Source: a virus (lineage: Duplodnaviria; Caudoviricetes). Taken from it: a stretch of 48,012 nucleotides of DNA. Shown here one piece after another: positions 2,861-47,838 of the stretch. The notes under the pieces were generated by a model, which saw only the letters and a list, made by a program, of their open reading frames with translations, was not told the origin of the DNA and searched no databases. Every line of letters begins with the position of its first letter. The first letter of the stretch is position 1. The stretch is taken from IMG/VR virus record IMGVR_UViG_3300020045_005404, positions 1 to 48,012 of that record. One strand, 5' to 3'. Both the position numbers and the translations under genes were made by a program.

Positions 2861-2935
2861 TATATTTATGTTCTCTCTGACCAAAGCAAAAACATTAAAT
2901 ACGGTCCAAAACTTAGAGAGGTTTTGGACTTTTTT
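2861..2935 (+). promoter_or_regulatory. Structured leader B
   Basis: TATATTTA; CTCTCTGA 2873-2880 pairs with loop TTAGAGAG 2913-2920 of hairpin GTCCAAAAC/GTTTTGGAC; T tract; ATG at 2939. Confidence 0.72.
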
Positions 2936-2938
2936 ATT

Positions 2939-4579
2939 ATGAAAAAATACACTCTTTACAATTACCAAGATAAAATGGTAAATGATACTTTCGAAAAATT
3001 AGAACCTTTTGAGTCGGTCCTAAATCAATCCGCAACAGGCTCAGGTAAAACAGTTATAATGTCGGAGTTCATAAAACGTTGGTTGGTCCTAAATCCAAAT
3101 AAAAAAGTATTGGTTTCGGTACATCGTGACGAACTTGTAAATCAAACATCTGACACGTTAGCTGAGTTTGGAATATTCAACGAAAAGATAACCCAAAAAT
3201 CAAAACCGACTTGGACCGCTGATGTTTACGTTGGAATGACTCAAACAATATGGAGTCGTAAATTATCACTAAATATCGGACTTCTTGTTATTGACGAAGC
3301 ACATGAACAGGTCCATGTAAAATCTTTTTCATTATTCGAAAATGCAAAGCGTGTAGGATTTACCGCAACCCCAATAATAAATAAACGGATTACATATTAC
3401 GAATGCGAGTACTGCAATAAACGGCACGAAACACGTGAGGTGTGCTGCTACAACGAAAAGGCTGAAAAATGGTCCGCTCCTGTTGTTATGGCTCAAACAT
3501 ACGATACTATAAATATTGGTCCGCCAATAAAACAATTGATTGATGAAGGTGCATTAGTTGATGAGGTTGTATATTGTTACGACTATTATTCAAGTCTAAA
3601 AGCAAAAGAGAATGATGATTTCGATGAGAATGAGATTGCCGAGGAATCAGTAAAGCACGATCTAAATGTTTTGGATGAATATAAAGAAAAAGCTTTAGGA
3701 AAAAAGACAATGATTTTTACAGCATCGACAAAGCAAAATATTTCTTTGGTCCAAACATTCTCGGAATATCCTATTAAATCTTACGACTCTGTAAACAATG
3801 ATACGTCGGAACGTAAAGATGTGGTCCAATGGTTTAAAGATACAGAAGGTGCGATACTTGTGTCAACAGGAACGTTTACAACAGGTTTCGATGTTCGTGA
3901 GGTTGAGTGCATTATTATCAACCGTCCGACAAAATCACTTTCATTATTTCATCAAATTGTTGGGCGTGGCGCAAGGACGGTAAAAGACGGGATGTTTAAA
4001 GACCATTTTATATTAATTGATTTAGGTGGCAATGTTGCCCGATTAGGTAAGTGGTCAGATCCGATTGATTGGCAGAAGATTTTCTTTATTGGATTAAACC
4101 CAGCACGCAAAAAAAAGGAAATTATTATACAATGTGACGAATGCGGTTTTAATTGGCTTGGACAAAACAAAGAACCGTGTCCGGACTGCGGCCACACGAA
4201 CCAAGTTATAAAAAAAGAACAGGCGTTAACGCTTTTCGATACTCCAGAATTAGAAGTGGTCCAAAAGAAAACGATGCTTGTTTCGAAAATCCCTATGCCG
4301 GACGGTAAAAAGATAATGGAATATGTTAGACGCACTACAAATAATAAGAACGATTACTTTAAATTGTTAATCGATAAGTATGTTGATTTATGGAAATTGA
4401 ACGGAGTGCCAAAAGAAAAGTTTGAATTAAGGAAAAGACAAAACACGGTGCGTATAAAAATCATGTCTTATCTTAAGACTCGTTATGCTTTTTGCAACAG
4501 TTTACAGTTTGGAGTTCCTCGGACCTACGAATATTTGATAGGAAAAATAGTCGAAAAATTAGAAGCAATATATAAGTGA
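2939..4579 (+). CDS. SF2 DEAH-type helicase with Zn ribbons
   Basis: ATGSGKT, DEAH, FTATP, TGFD, QIVGRGAR; CxxC pairs; ATG 2939 preferred over TTG 2924. Confidence 0.92.
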   Translation: MKKYTLYNYQDKMVNDTFEKLEPFESVLNQSATGSGKTVIMSEFIKRWLVLNPNKKVLVSVHRDELVNQTSDTLAEFGIFNEKITQKSKPTWTADVYVGMTQTIWSRKLSLNIGLLVIDEAHEQVHVKSFSLFENAKRVGFTATPIINKRITYYECEYCNKRHETREVCCYNEKAEKWSAPVVMAQTYDTINIGPPIKQLIDEGALVDEVVYCYDYYSSLKAKENDDFDENEIAEESVKHDLNVLDEYKEKALGKKTMIFTASTKQNISLVQTFSEYPIKSYDSVNNDTSERKDVVQWFKDTEGAILVSTGTFTTGFDVREVECIIINRPTKSLSLFHQIVGRGARTVKDGMFKDHFILIDLGGNVARLGKWSDPIDWQKIFFIGLNPARKKKEIIIQCDECGFNWLGQNKEPCPDCGHTNQVIKKEQALTLFDTPELEVVQKKTMLVSKIPMPDGKKIMEYVRRTTNNKNDYFKLLIDKYVDLWKLNGVPKEKFELRKRQNTVRIKIMSYLKTRYAFCNSLQFGVPRTYEYLIGKIVEKLEAIYK

Positions 4580-8198: not shown

Positions 8199-8530
8199 AG
8201 ATAGCATACATAGCACACCCAATCGGAGGTGACGTAAAAAACAACATCGACAAGGTTATTGAAATCTGTCGGGAAATAAACTTAACAGAACCAGATACCG
8301 TTCCGTTTGTTCCATACTTATCAGATTTATACGCATTGGATGATAATATTCCAAATGAGCGCAACAGAGGCATTAAAAACGGGTTGGCTATATTGGATTT
8401 TAATATAGTAAGTGAAGTTCGCTTATATGGCAATAAAATAAGTTTTGGGATGCGTCAGGAGATTAACAGAGCAATTAGAAACGGTGTTAAGGTAATTCCA
8501 ATGACTAAAGAAACAAAAGAACAATTATGA
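8195..8530 (+). CDS. DUF4406/nucleoside deoxyribosyltransferase-like fold protein
   Basis: AYIAHPIGG...ISFGMRQEI pattern. Confidence 0.6.
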   Translation: MKIAYIAHPIGGDVKNNIDKVIEICREINLTEPDTVPFVPYLSDLYALDDNIPNERNRGIKNGLAILDFNIVSEVRLYGNKISFGMRQEINRAIRNGVKVIPMTKETKEQL

Positions 8531-9165
8531 AAATCACAGAGAAGATTGAAATTACAAACGAGTGCAATATGCAATTGATGGCACGTTATCCAGATAATTA
8601 CTTTGATTTAGCTATTGTTGACCCGCCGTATGGTATTGAAATAAATATGAATATGGGGCGTAAAAAAGGAAAGAAAGCCCAACACGCTGTAAAAGATTGG
8701 GACAATGGTATTCCTGACGAAAAATACTTCAATGAATTATTTAGGGTTTCTAAGAATCAAATAATTTGGGGAGGAAACTATTTTCCATTACCGCTAACAA
8801 AGGCTTGGATATTTTGGGATAAACAAGTTCCTGAGGGCGTTTCTTTTGCAGACGGTGAGTTGGCTTGGACTTCTTTCGACAAAACACTTGTAAAGTTAAC
8901 AGTTCCGTATTCAGGTTTTCATGGTAGTGACCCAAACGGAAAAATACATCCAACTCAAAAACCTATAAAACTTTATAGAAATATTTTAGATAAATGGGGA
9001 GGAGAAGGTTTTAAAATCCTCGACACTCACCTCGGAAGTGGCAGTATTGCAATAGCCTGTCACGATTACGGATTTGAATTAACCGCTTGCGAACTAGATA
9101 CCGACTACTACAACGCAACAATCAAAAGAATCCAAAACCACGTTGCACAAACAAAACTATTCTAA
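8527..9165 (+). CDS. Orphan N4-C/N6-A DNA methyltransferase (beta class)
   Basis: DPPY, HPTQKP, DTHLGSGS. Confidence 0.92.
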   Translation: MKITEKIEITNECNMQLMARYPDNYFDLAIVDPPYGIEINMNMGRKKGKKAQHAVKDWDNGIPDEKYFNELFRVSKNQIIWGGNYFPLPLTKAWIFWDKQVPEGVSFADGELAWTSFDKTLVKLTVPYSGFHGSDPNGKIHPTQKPIKLYRNILDKWGGEGFKILDTHLGSGSIAIACHDYGFELTACELDTDYYNATIKRIQNHVAQTKLF

Positions 9166-9206: not shown

Positions 9207-9722
9207 ATGGCATTAACAGAAAAGCAAGAACGGTACTGTCAAAACTACGTCATCTCAGGCAACCAAAATACAGCCTACAGGATTGCTTATGATGCCGAGT
9301 CGATGAATAAAAACGTTGTTAACGTTGAGGCTTGCAGACTTCACGCAGACCCTAACATTTCCCTAAGAATTAAGGCTATACAGCAAGAGGCTTACGATAG
9401 GAACAAAATAACTATCGATGAACTCGTTCAAAACCTTGCTGGAATGGCACGTTTTGACATCGGTGACTTATATGATGATGATGGAAAATTACTTCCAATA
9501 AAACAGATGTCTTTATCTGCTCGACAAATGATAACCCAACTTGATACTGATGAAATCATAATGGGAGAAACAAAAATAGGAGAAACTAAAAAAGTTCGAA
9601 CTATTCAAAAACTTGACGCAATCGAAAAGTTAATGAAACATTTCGGTGGCTACGAAAAAGATAACCGTCAAAAAGCCGAAACAAAAACTATTATTTGGAA
9701 CGGTAAGCAAATAGACATATGA
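9207..9722 (+). CDS. terS: Terminase small subunit
   Basis: LTEKQERYCQNY...AYRIAY, KLDAIEKLMKHFG; directly upstream of terL. Confidence 0.88.
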   Translation: MALTEKQERYCQNYVISGNQNTAYRIAYDAESMNKNVVNVEACRLHADPNISLRIKAIQQEAYDRNKITIDELVQNLAGMARFDIGDLYDDDGKLLPIKQMSLSARQMITQLDTDEIIMGETKIGETKKVRTIQKLDAIEKLMKHFGGYEKDNRQKAETKTIIWNGKQIDI

Positions 9723-11095
9723 TTTTAACACCAAAACAAAGCGAAGCGATGGCAGCAGTCGAGAGTGAGAAGTATAACTTCATCACCTTTGGCGGTGCCA
9801 TCCGCTGACGTGGCGGTAAATCATTTTGGGGACTTTCTGCATTACTTGTGCTTTGCTCTGTTTTCCCCCGTTCAAGATGGGCGGTGATTCGAGAGGACAT
9901 GGAGAAAATACGAACTACAACAATACCGACTTTTAAAAAGATTGAGCCAAGTGGCTCTTTGAAACAATCGCCATACGAATACACTCACCCGAATGGATCT
10001 GTTATACTTTTCAAGTCTGAAAACTATTCTGGTGACAAAGACTTAGATTGGATGAAAGGTTTAGAGGTTAATGGTTTTCTTTTCGAAGAAATAAACGAAT
10101 GTCAAAAACAAACGCTTTATAAGGCTTTTGAGCGTGCTGGAAGTTGGATTATACCGAATACCACTAACCAACCGTTCCCGACTATAATGGCAACTTGTAA
10201 TCCGACTTTTGGATGGTTCAAAGAATTAGTTTATGACCGTTGGAAAAAAGAAGAACTTCCTGAAAAGTGGCTTTATATTCCATCAAAGATTACCGATAAC
10301 GTTGATGAAAACGGAAACAGCAATTTGCCTCAGGCTTATATGGACTCTTTGCTTAATCTCCCCCAATTCGAATACATGGTTTTCGTTGAAGGTAATTGGG
10401 ACGTTCAATTAAAGACAGGAGGTGAGTTCTATAAACAATTCGAAATAAACAAACACGTCACCCATACATCATACAATCCTGAATTACCTTTGCATATTTC
10501 ATTTGACGACAACGTAAATCCCTACCTACCTTGTGGGATATTTCAAATAATAGGCAAAGAGTTGTTAATGATTGAAGAAATAGCAGGAGTAACCCCAAAC
10601 AACACGATAAAGTCGGTTTGCAATGAAATTATAAGGAAATATCCGGCTCATAAATCAGGAATGTTTATTTATGGCGATGCAACGGCAAATAAACAAGACA
10701 CGAAAATGGAAAAAGGCCACAATTTCTATACCATAATAATGGATTTATTGAAACAATATAAACCCGTAAATCGCGTTACCCGAAGCAATCCAAGCGTAGT
10801 TATGCGAGGCAATTGGATAAATACCATATTTGAAACGGGATTGGGTGGAATATCAATAAAGATTGGCGAGAACTGCAAAAAAATGATAACCGATTTCGTG
10901 AGCTTGAAAGAATGTGCAGACGGAACTAAGTTTAAGGAAACAGAAAAAGACCCGAAAACTAAGGCTATTCAACAAAAGTTCGGGCATTATGGGGATTTGT
11001 TCGACTATATCATTTGCAGCGCATTTGAGGCAGATTTCAATGAATACGCTAACGGCAAAAAACAATCAACGGCCAGTTGGTCAGGCGCATTCTAA
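9719..11095 (+). CDS. terL: Terminase large subunit, with in-frame TGA at 9806-9808 inside Walker A
   Basis: ATG 9719 overlaps the terS stop; MILTPKQSEA...FGGAIR*RGGKSFW in frame with the 9848 ORF; FLFEEINE Walker B, TCNP, HISFD and HYGD nuclease motifs. Confidence 0.88.
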
Positions 11096-12562: not shown

Positions 12563-12573
12563 AGTAAGGGTTT
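12546..12573. terminator. Probable bidirectional terminator between portal and convergent cassette
   Basis: AAACCCCTAC/GTAAGGGTTT inverted repeat at convergent gene ends. Confidence 0.55.
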
Positions 12574-12658
12574 AATACTGAATTGGTTTCGATGCAATTT
12601 TGCTACCTGCTTTAAGCCGAATCGAACGGCACGAATTCACCTATATTCTATCAGTATT
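12574..12658 (-). ncRNA. Putative T-loop-containing multi-stem RNA
   Basis: Closing stem AATACTGA/TCAGTATT; minus strand has GAAT-ATAGGTGA-ATTC then GCCG-TTCGATT-CGGC. Confidence 0.4.
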
Positions 12659-12661
12659 TTT

Positions 12662-12934
12662 TTATATAATTTTAAGGGCATTCATGATAAACATCAAATC
12701 AATAGTAGTATTTAAAAAGCCCTTGAAATAATTTGAATGGTTAGGTTCTTTTTCATTGTTGTTAAATATGATAAACAATCCATTTTCACAAACTTCTAAA
12801 ATCCAATCAGTTTCTTTATACCTGTATTGGGACATTTCGGAATCTTTGCCCATCAAGAACCAACCAACACTATTATAGGTGGCTACATCCATTTTTATAA
12901 GATTCTGTAAATAGTTATAATTTGTGTTTTCCAC
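12662..12934 (-). CDS. Hypothetical protein (antisense cassette)
   Basis: 90-aa AT-rich ORF. Confidence 0.6.
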   Translation of the reverse strand: MENTNYNYLQNLIKMDVATYNSVGWFLMGKDSEMSQYRYKETDWILEVCENGLFIIFNNNEKEPNHSNYFKGFLNTTIDLMFIMNALKII

Positions 12935-12936
12935 AA

Positions 12937-13137
12937 CTAAACTTTCTTTTTAAAGTTATCAAAATGCCCTACGTAACCGAACCTTCCAAAAAATTTCATA
13001 ACGGTAACGGCTCTGCATAACCCTAAATTTATATTCCTACACTTCAAACTAAATGCGCTTTGCTTCATTTGTGGCGTTATTTGAGTGTATGGTTTATGCA
13101 TTTTCTTAATGTCCGAAATAACTTCCCGATTTGTCAT
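12937..13137 (-). CDS. Small basic hypothetical protein, possibly DNA-binding
   Basis: MTNREVISDIKKMHKPY...; ATG 13137 preferred. Confidence 0.55.
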   Translation of the reverse strand: MTNREVISDIKKMHKPYTQITPQMKQSAFSLKCRNINLGLCRAVTVMKFFGRFGYVGHFDNFKKKV

Positions 13138-13256
13138 TATAATAATATTAAGGGTTTGCGCAAATATAATCAATTATATTATACCGTATTTTATTTTATC
13201 CAATATTTCCAAATTTTCACGTTATTTTTACATCAAACTTTAAACGTTCTAAAATT

Positions 13257-13904
13257 ATGAGTATTGACAAAGCTAAAGTGATAACTCGGATTAAGGCACT
13301 ACACCCTAAGACGAATTTATCAAACGCACGGCTTGACGAGATTTCGGCAAGACTAATCAAGAAACTAAATGATGATGCTGACGACACGGCAATCGATGAA
13401 GCTATTGGAATAGCAGATGACTACAACCCATTTACTGAAATCGCTCGAAACGATGACAAGATTAGGGATTTGGAGGCAAAAGCAAAAAAACCAGCAGATA
13501 AGATTGACGAACCGAAACCCGATCCAATTCCTGACGATGTTTCCCCTGCAATGAGGGCTTATTTAGATAAGCAAAACGAATTGATTGAGAAAATTAACGG
13601 CAAATTGGAAGGCTTCGAGAAAGGGCAGCAACGCAAATCGCTTTCTGAAAGATTCAATTCGGACGAAAGGGTAAAAAACATTCCTGACTTTATGAAGCGT
13701 GGTTATACCCCACAGAACGAAGATGAATTCGAAAAGAACATCACGGACTTATCAAGTGCGTTCACTAAATATGCCGAGGATAATAAACTCAGTATTTTAG
13801 GTAATGATTATCCAAGCGGTAGCGGATCGGGCGAAGTCAAAAAGACAAAAGAGGCATCCCCAGAACAAATTGCGGATGTATTAAAACTAATCCCTAATAA
13901 TTAA
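13257..13904 (+). CDS. Capsid scaffolding protein
   Basis: Charged helical protein with Pro-rich linker, just before the head genes. Confidence 0.75.
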   Translation: MSIDKAKVITRIKALHPKTNLSNARLDEISARLIKKLNDDADDTAIDEAIGIADDYNPFTEIARNDDKIRDLEAKAKKPADKIDEPKPDPIPDDVSPAMRAYLDKQNELIEKINGKLEGFEKGQQRKSLSERFNSDERVKNIPDFMKRGYTPQNEDEFEKNITDLSSAFTKYAEDNKLSILGNDYPSGSGSGEVKKTKEASPEQIADVLKLIPNN

Positions 13905-25636: not shown

Positions 25637-25726
25637 TATGTTTGCTTTAAATCCGCCAAGATGTAAAACATTAAAAAAATGCCTTTTCTTAATTCTGCTT
25701 GGCGGTGGATTTTGAAAGGGCGTTTT
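25637..25726 (+). promoter_or_regulatory. Structured leader D
   Basis: TATGTTTG; CCGCCAAG 25653-25660 complementary to CTTGGCGG 25698-25705 in the loop of hairpin 25676-25726. Confidence 0.75.
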
Positions 25727-25732
25727 CAGTTT

Positions 25733-26230
25733 ATGGAATTAGGTAATTACTTAGGTTATATTGTAAATAAAAAAGGACAAATTTTTACTAAGAAAAATGG
25801 TTCAATTATGAAAACAACCTTAAATGACAAAGGATATCCTTGTGTTGGGTTGTCAGTAAATGGTAAGAAGGTATTTAAAAGAGTACATAGAATAGTTGCG
25901 GAAACCTTTATACCTAACCCAGAAAATAAGCCACACGTCAACCACAAAGACAGAGATAGGGCAAACTACCATTTTGATAACCTTGAATGGTGTACTCCTT
26001 CCGAAAATGTTATTCATTCAGTAAGAAATGGAGGCAGAACAAATTGGAAAAGAAACAATACAGGAGAGTCAAACGGCAATTCAAAATTAAAATGGAAGCA
26101 GATTTTAGCAATAAGAGCTTTGTATTCTTGTAAGGAATTTAGTCAAAATGATATTGCTGATATATTCAACATTACTCAGGGCGAAGTAGGTAAAATAGTA
26201 AATCATAAAATATGGAAGCAAGAGAAATAA
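25733..26230 (+). CDS. HNH homing endonuclease with C-terminal HTH
   Basis: VHRIVAETFIPNPENKPHVNHKD...NLEWCT..EN; ATG 25733 preferred. Confidence 0.9.
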   Translation: MELGNYLGYIVNKKGQIFTKKNGSIMKTTLNDKGYPCVGLSVNGKKVFKRVHRIVAETFIPNPENKPHVNHKDRDRANYHFDNLEWCTPSENVIHSVRNGGRTNWKRNNTGESNGNSKLKWKQILAIRALYSCKEFSQNDIADIFNITQGEVGKIVNHKIWKQEK

Positions 26231-37460: not shown

Positions 37461-37991
37461 TTGATAGAACAAAAAATCAAATATATGATAGTTATACCAA
37501 ATACTAATGGACTTTATTTTGCTTCTGATGATGGTGAGATATTTAGAAATGGAAAACGTATTGCTCCAATAAATAATGGCAACGACTATTTGTGTGTTGT
37601 TTTAAGTATTGAAGGAAAAACACAAAGAAAATATATTCACAGATTGATATGTGAGGCTTATATTGCAAACCCTGAAAACAAATCAGAAGTTAACCATATC
37701 GACGGAAATAAAATGAATAATTCCCTCTATAATTTAGAGTGGGCTACACGTTCAGAAAATCAATTCCACAGATATAAAGTTTTAAAGCATTCAGGAGCAA
37801 ACTTAGGCAAAACAGGAAGCGAAAACGGACGAAGTAAAACAGTTTACCAATTAGATTTAGACGGAAATACGATAAATGTTTTTGAAAGCGTATTAGAGGC
37901 TCAAAGAAGAACAGGAATAAACGAGGCTTCTATAAGAGGCGTAGTTTATGGGAAACAAAAAACTGCGGGTAAATATAAATGGAAATATTAA
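37461..37991 (+). CDS. HNH endonuclease with NUMOD1-like C-terminus
   Basis: IHRLICEAYIANPENKSEVNHIDGNKMNN...NLEW; VYQLDLDG...FES..EA; start may be 37485. Confidence 0.88.
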   Translation: MIEQKIKYMIVIPNTNGLYFASDDGEIFRNGKRIAPINNGNDYLCVVLSIEGKTQRKYIHRLICEAYIANPENKSEVNHIDGNKMNNSLYNLEWATRSENQFHRYKVLKHSGANLGKTGSENGRSKTVYQLDLDGNTINVFESVLEAQRRTGINEASIRGVVYGKQKTAGKYKWKY

Positions 37992-39014: not shown

Positions 39015-39359
39015 ATGGAGAATAAAGTAATCGTAAGGAACTGTAATTTATGTCAGATATTCCGACACGAAGAAGTTGGAGATAGCGACTACGGGGCAGT
39101 TTACGCAAAAGATGCAAGTTGTTCAAAGTACTACGATACCGACGAAGAAACAGAAGAGGAAATTCCAAATTTCGACAGGAATATCGAACGCAATTGTTGC
39201 GAATTAGATTTCTTTAAAGTATCTGAAATTGATACAGATTTATCAGAAAAACTCTCAGATGAAATGGATAGAACGCAAGGCGGTTTTTCTGAAACGTATA
39301 AATTATTTCAAGACAAGTATATTACTAACCCGCCCGATAACGGCACAATACATAAGTAA
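39015..39359 (+). CDS. Acidic Cys-containing hypothetical protein
   Basis: ATG 39015 preferred. Confidence 0.65.
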   Translation: MENKVIVRNCNLCQIFRHEEVGDSDYGAVYAKDASCSKYYDTDEETEEEIPNFDRNIERNCCELDFFKVSEIDTDLSEKLSDEMDRTQGGFSETYKLFQDKYITNPPDNGTIHK

Positions 39360-39363
39360 GGAG

Positions 39364-39855
39364 ATGGGAATACACGAAACAAAAGGCGCATCAGATGAAT
39401 GGTACACGCCTAAATATATTTTTGATGCTATGAATGTTCAATTTGATTTAGACGTGGCGCATCCTGATATTGAAACTTGCGTTCCGGCAAATCATATTAT
39501 AACAGAAAATAGTTTAGAGTCCGAATGGTTTGGATTTGTATGGATGAATCCGCCATGGTGCAGTACTAAAGACAAACGAAAGTGGATTGATAAGTTTATC
39601 TCGCACGGAAATGTAGTTTGTTTGATGCCTGACAGTACTTCGTCCGATTGGTGGCAACATTTAGCGAATAATAGCGACGGAGTTTTGTTTACAAAGTCAC
39701 GTGTTAAGTTCATTAAACCTGACGGAACTACAGGCGACAATCCTGCAAACGGAACAAGCCTTTTTGCTATCGGTTCGCAAGGTATTGAAGCAATAAGGCG
39801 AGCAGAAAAAAACGGACTTGGTAAAATGTATTTAACCACCCAAACGGCAAAATAA
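39364..39855 (+). CDS. Phage Dam-like DNA N6-adenine methyltransferase
   Basis: DEWYTP, FDLDVA, WFGFVWMNPPW, RVKF; ATG 39364 preferred. Confidence 0.85.
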   Translation: MGIHETKGASDEWYTPKYIFDAMNVQFDLDVAHPDIETCVPANHIITENSLESEWFGFVWMNPPWCSTKDKRKWIDKFISHGNVVCLMPDSTSSDWWQHLANNSDGVLFTKSRVKFIKPDGTTGDNPANGTSLFAIGSQGIEAIRRAEKNGLGKMYLTTQTAK

Positions 39856-47457: not shown

Positions 47458-47838
47458 TTAGAACGGCAAATCCAAATCCTCTTCTTCTACTGCGTTAGTA
47501 CTAGGTTTAAATGCTTCTGCTGATGGCATTGCAGGTTTTTCTGTATTTGATTCAGATTTAAATACTTTCCAAGCGTCAAGGGTATTAAACCATCTTCTGT
47601 TTTCTTCTGGTTCGCCATCTTTTAAATAAGAACGACCTTTTAAATTGTAATCAATGTCCACAAATTGACCTTCTTTATTAAATTCAATAAAATTATCTGC
47701 TCTATCTTGCGATACTTCAAATTGAACTTCTTGTGGATATTGACTATCTAACTTTACAATAAACTCAACTTTTTTATAAGTATCAGTTACTTGTTGTAAA
47801 GCTTTAATTTTAATAATTTGTACATTTTTTAATTCCAT
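47458..47838 (-). CDS. DUF3127-family (SSB-like) protein with acidic DLPF tail
   Basis: QYPQEVQFE, NLKGR, FNTLDAWKV. Confidence 0.85.
   Translation of the reverse strand: MELKNVQIIKIKALQQVTDTYKKVEFIVKLDSQYPQEVQFEVSQDRADNFIEFNKEGQFVDIDYNLKGRSYLKDGEPEENRRWFNTLDAWKVFKSESNTEKPAMPSAEAFKPSTNAVEEEDLDLPF

Follow-up and report, generated by a model that had tools for sequence, protein, structure and literature searches.

A probable six-base ribosomal stop-hop in the Walker A motif of a phage large terminase gene, likely left by a homing cassette

How does a phage make its large terminase subunit when the ATP-binding loop of that protein is interrupted by a stop codon? The question is raised by the DNA analysed here, which we call the window: one viral record of 48,012 bases, estimated to be 98% complete and carrying intact head, tail and lysis genes. 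On its plus strand, the small subunit gene terS (9207-9722; Pfam Terminase_2, E 4.7e-21; PHROG 51) ends in a TGA (9720-9722) that overlaps the terL start, ATG 9719. From there terL runs for 29 codons (9719-9805), collinear with intact relatives, into the first half of Walker A, reading F-G-G-A-I-R. The Arg codon CGC (9803-9805) is followed in frame by TGA (9806-9808), a second Arg codon CGT (9809-9811) and GGC GGT AAA TCA (G-G-K-S), after which the frame stays open to TAA at 11093-11095. The loop is thus interrupted by six extra bases, a stop plus a second Arg codon, and CG flanks these six bases as a direct repeat. The 3' piece (9812-11095) encodes the remaining ATPase and the nuclease domain (PHROG 979 and 10250, terminase large subunit; 1226 homologues). 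This gapped gene is the only terL of the record, and the ORF caller begins it at GTG 9848, beyond Walker A. The original prediction had described the split motif, the overlapping start and the truncated call, and all three were confirmed. Our explanation is a programmed stop-hop across six bases that a homing cassette left behind; taken as a whole, we give it a probability of roughly 0.78.

The host is likely a member of the Bacteroidota, because the nearest named terminase, capsid and portal genes (27–44% identity) belong mostly to Flavobacterium, Bacteroides, Cellulophaga, Riemerella and Porphyromonas phages. A prophage and host search with terL, run with no positive control, gave no match at E 1e-30 in the 401 genomes that were sampled from the phylum around G001. 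The promoter consensus TAnnTTTG occurred 73 times against 59 expected, which is not significant (7 of 100 shuffles as high), and no solved structure matched by sequence. The window also holds two DNA methyltransferase genes (8527-9165 and 39229-39855) and, on opposite strands, two single-strand binding protein genes (2123-2407 and 47458-47838). Between the portal gene and the next head gene, about 700 nt (12563-13256) lack a clear plus-strand gene and contain minus-strand ORFs at 12662-12934 and 12937-13173. Just past the portal gene, ARAGORN calls a tRNA-Ser(CGA) at 12573-12658 (minus strand); it has no Rfam match at gathering score and is probably spurious.

We surveyed other terL genes for the same interruption. 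A first pattern that required Arg-stop-Arg found 37 viral loci. To prevent circularity, a further scan left the six bases between Arg and GGK free: its 42 viral matches were without exception terL homologues, 41 with CGN-stop-CGN and one (L227) with CGG-CAG-TGA, and 21 of its 24 metagenome matches were terL, every one CGN-stop-CGN. The other three metagenome matches and all 11 matches in cellular genomes were unrelated to terL. The total of 63 counts records from viral and metagenome collections that partly overlap; these collapse to 47 distinct contexts, the window among them, and to 20 representatives at 90% identity. Of the 63 terL records, 62 have CGN-stop-CGN at the site. The first triplet is TGA in 53, TAG in 5, TAA in 4 and CAG in 1, the landing codon is CGT, CGA or CGG in 62, and two sense codons were found in none. 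These genes come from other assemblies, at 35–79% protein identity. Gapped alleles are a minority, with 42 viral matches against an estimated 670 or so stretches with intact GGAIRGGK genes, 120 of which were examined.

Among the best 120 homologous proteins, the loop has the same length in all 104 with a readable motif; the rest are 14 that were called without the motif and 2 that the pattern missed. Besides the window's own, twelve of the 120 were called without the Walker A part (P0014, P0016, P0026, P0032, P0043, P0048, P0051, P0062, P0069, P0072, P0076 and P0077) and are probably further gapped alleles. The gap explains why gene callers truncate these terminases.

The codons around the stop are restricted. 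Take-off in the 20 gapped representatives is from CGC, CGA or CGG and never from CGT or AGR, whereas intact genes (86 representatives) have CGT at this Arg in 30 of 85 cases and AGR in 19. AGR is absent from all 39 flanking Arg codons of gapped alleles, compared to 19 of 85 in intact ones (p 7e-4). In 15 of 19 pairs, the take-off and landing codons both end in a pyrimidine or both in a purine (p 0.024, post hoc). This pairing fits a gene set of tRNA-Arg ACG and TCG, as present in one Flavobacteriaceae genome (27 of 36 tRNA matches examined).

RNA structure is the next candidate signal. The original prediction had placed a hairpin over the stop, and this did not hold: the hairpin appears in the minimum free energy fold of 9788-9823, but with a z of −0.17 and 79 of 200 shuffles as good, and it is not shared across gapped alleles. 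The TGGCGGT repeats that it had noted at 9790 and 9811 are present but are merely Gly-Gly codons. Across alleles, neither 3' structure nor a hairpin over the stop gave a signal. By modelling, the relevant structure is instead a predicted helix 5' of the take-off codon (9741-9805). The window's 9719-9805 region folds with a z of −4.3, and the long stem-loop that reaches up to the take-off codon (z −4.1 to −4.3, 0 of 200 shuffles) is predicted to comprise an outer helix, 9748-9754 with 9796-9802, and an inner hairpin at 9758-9793. Measured against synonymous shuffles, the 5' region has a mean z of −3.8 in the 20 gapped representatives versus −0.9 in 40 intact ones.

Covariation and duplex comparisons point to the same region. 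An 11-pair model for the window's clade, drawn from the gapped set and applied to related sequences, is 94.9% paired in 9 gapped sequences and 56.2% in 33 intact ones; at two synonymous pairs, the 9 gapped sequences have 8 compensatory cells (1 of 500 shuffles) and the 33 intact ones have none. The 14 bases leading into the take-off codon pair upstream in 18 of 19 gapped but 4 of 86 intact representatives, and the duplex is stronger than in the intact sibling in all 14 pairs compared. The partner lies at one of four sites depending on lineage, about −36, −41, −68 or −93. We controlled for base content, given that the helix was found by inspecting these same sequences: the duplex beats every downstream window in 17 of 19 gapped versus 3 of 70 intact, and with only the partner shuffled, 11 of 19 gapped and 3 of 70 intact representatives reach significance. 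The Ala codon is GCC or GCG in all 20 gapped representatives compared to 31 of 86 intact ones, a codon bias that arises from the upstream pairing. GGNGGUG upstream of the landing codon codes for Gly-Gly and is accounted for by the helix; since the anti-Shine-Dalgarno sequence is sequestered in the ribosomes of Bacteroidia (PMC10798248), it probably does not act as a Shine-Dalgarno sequence. The structure is not exclusive to gapped alleles, since the nearest intact relative, L010, has a long 5' hairpin (2935-3006, z −4.6); L010 may be a revertant of a gapped allele. On the strength of these predictions, we consider it reasonably probable that the helix drives the hop.

Could gapped alleles simply make no TerL? 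The gap might spread by homing drive, with TerL supplied by a co-infecting phage or by precise-deletion reversion in a subpopulation. The rarity of gapped alleles, the existence of intact siblings with up to 95% DNA identity and one allele that may be decayed (L462, see below) would agree with this. However, both terL pieces are under purifying selection: in 16 disjoint gapped pairs, the 80 codons that follow the gap have a pooled pS of 0.41 and pN of 0.044, and the 22 codons that precede it have 0.26 and 0.045. Gapped alleles with no adjoining nuclease gene have diverged up to saturation at synonymous sites with both pieces still intact, and of 86 complete gapped records, 2 have a short downstream frame, as do 3 of 115 intact ones. 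Moreover, compensatory RNA pairs require selection on the gapped mRNA. The gapped feature is real, selected and recurrent, and we regard the absence of TerL as very unlikely.

Equally improbable, in our judgement, is removal of the six bases from the RNA, by a micro-intron, by cleavage and ligation or by polymerase skipping, with the helix presenting the site. While a conserved RNA structure that ends at the gap and the CG direct repeat would be expected of such a process, six bases are too few for a ribozyme, and the selected in-frame stop and tRNA-matched codons (15 of 19 pairs in one isoacceptor group) indicate decoding. No Rfam family matches the window at gathering score; with no such match and an insert of 6 nt, we rejected a self-splicing intron.

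Stop readthrough, by a near-cognate tRNA, a suppressor or a recoded stop, would make a working loop two residues longer. The gap of six nucleotides preserves the frame, as readthrough would need, and the base after every stop is C, a weak termination context. Against this, all three stops occur at the site, no sense R-X-R is found among the 63 records, and loop length is constant in the readable proteins. TGA also terminates 6 of the 40 listed genes in the window, which bears out the earlier view that it is an ordinary stop here; with three stop types and no sense alleles, we discarded a recoded genome. A suppressor tRNA was likewise rejected, the only tRNA call having the anticodon CGA and no confirmation by Rfam.

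Gaps of other lengths weigh further against readthrough. A variable-gap scan gave 56 matches, 41 in terL (35 of them six-base gaps) and 15 by chance, L494 among the chance matches; a second scan from the other side of the site added nothing. In a single lineage, the gap is 10 nt (L477, CGC TGA CAAA CGA) or 11 nt (L456 and L473, CGC TGA CAAAC CGT). The rest of the gene is then out of frame, and readthrough cannot restore terL, yet the landing Arg codon is still matched. Judged from the sequences, a matched Arg landing out of frame is a signature of tRNA re-pairing. We therefore hold readthrough to be highly improbable. Relatives have both a recurrent Arg-stop-Arg and the longer gaps between matched codons that the original prediction had envisaged. 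Its stop-hop reading withstood every comparison, namely matched CGN codons, interchangeable stops, no sense inserts, a constant loop and out-of-frame variants, and full-length TerL is very likely made by ribosomes that hop over the stop.

A split gene is barely credible, whether the 29-residue piece associates with a C-terminal piece made by re-initiation or a start further along yields a shorter TerL: endonuclease-split genes with two cooperating pieces exist (MobE/nrdA, in the sources accessible to us) and gene callers do report such truncated products, but no allele has a start codon between the stop and G-K-S, the first downstream starts lose the catalytic lysine, and the second Arg codon is left unexplained. 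An assembly or sequencing error, conceivable for what is an assembled record only, has a negligible chance, as the same nine-base pattern, with synonymous and stop variation, recurs in 62 other records from many assemblies and is neither chance nor error.

A few alleles fit the stop-hop reading poorly. Three have 4-base inserts at the same terL site (L449, L467 and L462, the last identical to L356), and lack both a stop at take-off and a matched landing codon in frame; their sequences are ATA CGA AGGC GGT and ATA CGA CAGC GGC (L449, motif near 1598; L462/L356:2583-2615). L462 adjoins an HNH gene and has the helix, is without an obvious ATG, and may be decayed. The single record L227 (1601-1633, minus strand) reads CGG CAG TGA GGC, with the stop in the landing position, and a hop there would need first-position U-G wobble. 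Elsewhere in the window, two further matched-codon stops were found, at 13902 and 36299, each pair sharing two bases. Both were rejected as hop sites: at 13902 a gene ends and the next gene has its own start, and 36299 is likewise.

Where did the gap come from? A quick maximum-likelihood tree was built from the ATPase segments of 21 gapped and 78 intact alleles (99 in all, with the motif left out), and gapped alleles are scattered in it among intact ones. Gap state changes 17 times compared to a shuffled mean of 19.2, and strong branches require at least 11 changes. L072 and L102 show no difference over 190 residues, yet have opposite gap states. In L072 and L267, the sibling's own terL 5' end, cut after F-G-G-A, lies about 600 nt upstream, giving the order parental 5' end, insert, and a second, diverged 5' end with the gap. 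This layout with a duplicated 5' end occurs in six loci, and the insert is a gene for a 173–174 aa HNH_3 protein that overlaps the new terL start. L065, from the window's clade, has a different NUMOD4-HNH gene between terS and terL, 35% identical to the HNH_3 type, and L462, with its 4-base insert, is a third nuclease case; the cassette nucleases are 160–174 aa HNH_3/NUMOD4 proteins.

Considering loci with at least 750 nt upstream and HNH genes that end within 150 nt of the motif, an HNH gene lies just upstream at 7 of the 36 gapped loci and at none of the 104 intact ones; the seven represent two nuclease types and not seven independent events, and a p-value overstates their independence. The other 29 of the 36 gapped loci are nuclease-free. 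Searches that started from the nucleases (48 and 80 loci) found L356 but no new duplicated cassette. In L282 (1673-2320, minus strand), L076 and L280, the parental terL 5' end, left orphaned, continues in frame into an HNH gene, and the nuclease there may use terL's start.

In the window, no endonuclease gene adjoins terL, so that a nuclease on the altered allele and absent from intact siblings is found in relatives but not in this genome; we infer that it was lost here by recombination between the duplicated ends. The window's other HNH genes, at 25679-26230 (HNH_3) and 37461-37991 (HNH_3 with NUMOD1), are far from terL and 33–38% identical to the cassette enzymes, and tblastx found no duplicated flanks around these two free-standing genes. 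On this sequence evidence, it is likely that the gap arrived with a homing-endonuclease cassette. The HNH cassette would insert at the terL 5' end or immediately ahead of it and bring a replacement 5' end, and the six bases would disrupt the site in the conserved Walker A DNA that the nuclease targets; in the window, the nuclease gene would have been lost and the gap kept. With cleavage of the intact site a prediction, the six bases are probably an immunity mark against the homing endonuclease. Such immunity explains the purpose of the gap better than the setting of a terL:terS ratio, which had been suggested originally.

How does this compare with known systems? The comparisons draw on the accessible parts of the cited sources. 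As in T4 gene 60 and MobA, take-off and landing codons are matched or wobble-matched with a stop next to take-off, and as with MobA, an HNH gene overlaps or adjoins a diverged copy of the target coding sequence supplied by the element, insertion has recurred beside near-identical intact siblings, and nucleases have been lost with the gap retained; 5' structure that is stronger in gapped than in parental alleles recalls gene 60 (bioRxiv 10.1101/2022.08.31.505936). For MobA, the same source cites an experiment in which the gap blocks nicking. Of the features expected of a gene 60-type bypass, we found matched codons, a stop after take-off (62 of 63 records; CAG in L227), a landing independent of frame and, by prediction and covariation, a 5' stem-loop, the last also in intact L010. 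The differences are equally clear. The gap is 6 nt (10–11 in one lineage) instead of 20–50, is too short to hold the A-site tetraloop hairpin of gene 60 and has no mini-Shine-Dalgarno sequence inside it. The target is the Walker A of terL, whereas that of MobA is a topoisomerase, and here the whole N-terminus is replaced, while there the protein is split in two. The nucleases are 160–174 aa HNH_3/NUMOD4 proteins against 269–279 aa for MobA, set apart by size and domains and not by alignment. We rejected membership in the MobA elements, which insert in the topoisomerase large subunit of phages with CTE/NTE tails, given a different target, smaller nucleases and no gap structure; by analogy, the element appears to work like a MobA element and is not a member.

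The closest geometry is that of synthetic stop-hops, in which a stop has a matched codon on either side and nine nucleotides yield one amino acid (PMC5009743; bioRxiv 10.1101/2024.12.09.627546). Those are constructs that hop at low levels without stimulators, whereas the present site is natural, in an essential gene, and has a conserved predicted stimulator. The 2016 review, in its accessible part, knew of no natural in-frame stop-hop (PMC5009743). Streptomyces phage Hau3 also has a candidate bypass of short (10-nt) blocks in its large terminase gene, but one that combines a frame-shifting block with a hungry UUA codon, was seen in 3 of 100 genes and is proposed as a developmental sensor; the accessible text gives no nuclease link for it (PMC10732093), and we take it as a separate bypass candidate. 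The byps of Magnusiomyces mitochondria are likewise mobile inserts that bypassing from one matched codon to the other renders harmless, but they are mitochondrial, 27–55 nt long, have an unused sense codon in the A site and, in the sources at hand, no nuclease. Our literature search, mostly without subscription papers or bioRxiv supplements, found no prior report of the present element.

The stop-hop that we propose would proceed as follows. With TGA in the A site, peptidyl-tRNA-Arg would leave CGC, re-pair at CGT and resume decoding at GGC, so that nine bases yield one arginine and the product has the normal loop, GAIRGGKS. Ribosomes that terminate would release a 29-residue peptide. While CGC is in the P site, the 3' arm of the helix would still be inside the ribosome and could pair only if the mRNA were drawn out by about the length of the observed gaps; as the mRNA exits, the 14 bases 5' of take-off would zip with the upstream segment and push the ribosome forward. 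The stop would serve as filler, such that a failed hop gives a short peptide and not a motor subunit whose loop is deformed. Since few copies of TerL are needed, a modest hop rate could suffice. Unstimulated stop-hops are low-level, and exiting mRNA has been proposed as a driver for gene 60 (bioRxiv 10.1101/2024.12.09.627546, accessible part). It is tempting to go further and view this as a natural minimal stop-hop whose sole driver is the helix behind the ribosome, re-evolved at four partner sites as homing nucleases spread the gap, a view that we favour only slightly over its denial.

If true, the site would be a natural counterpart, in an essential gene, of the synthetic stop-hops, and would allow the model in which exiting mRNA drives the gene 60 bypass to be tested in pared-down form. 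Proven bacterial bypassing consists of T4 gene 60 and its homologues, in which many signals are hard to disentangle. The terL alleles offer dozens of natural versions of a 90-base cassette that comprises a single stop, two codons and a single helix, with gap-length variants and near-identical intact siblings to serve as controls. Two old questions would become testable: whether in-frame stop-hops occur in nature, and whether pairing of the exiting mRNA alone can drive a ribosome. For the homing nuclease, the gap would be a cheap self-protection in a motif that tolerates no extra residue.
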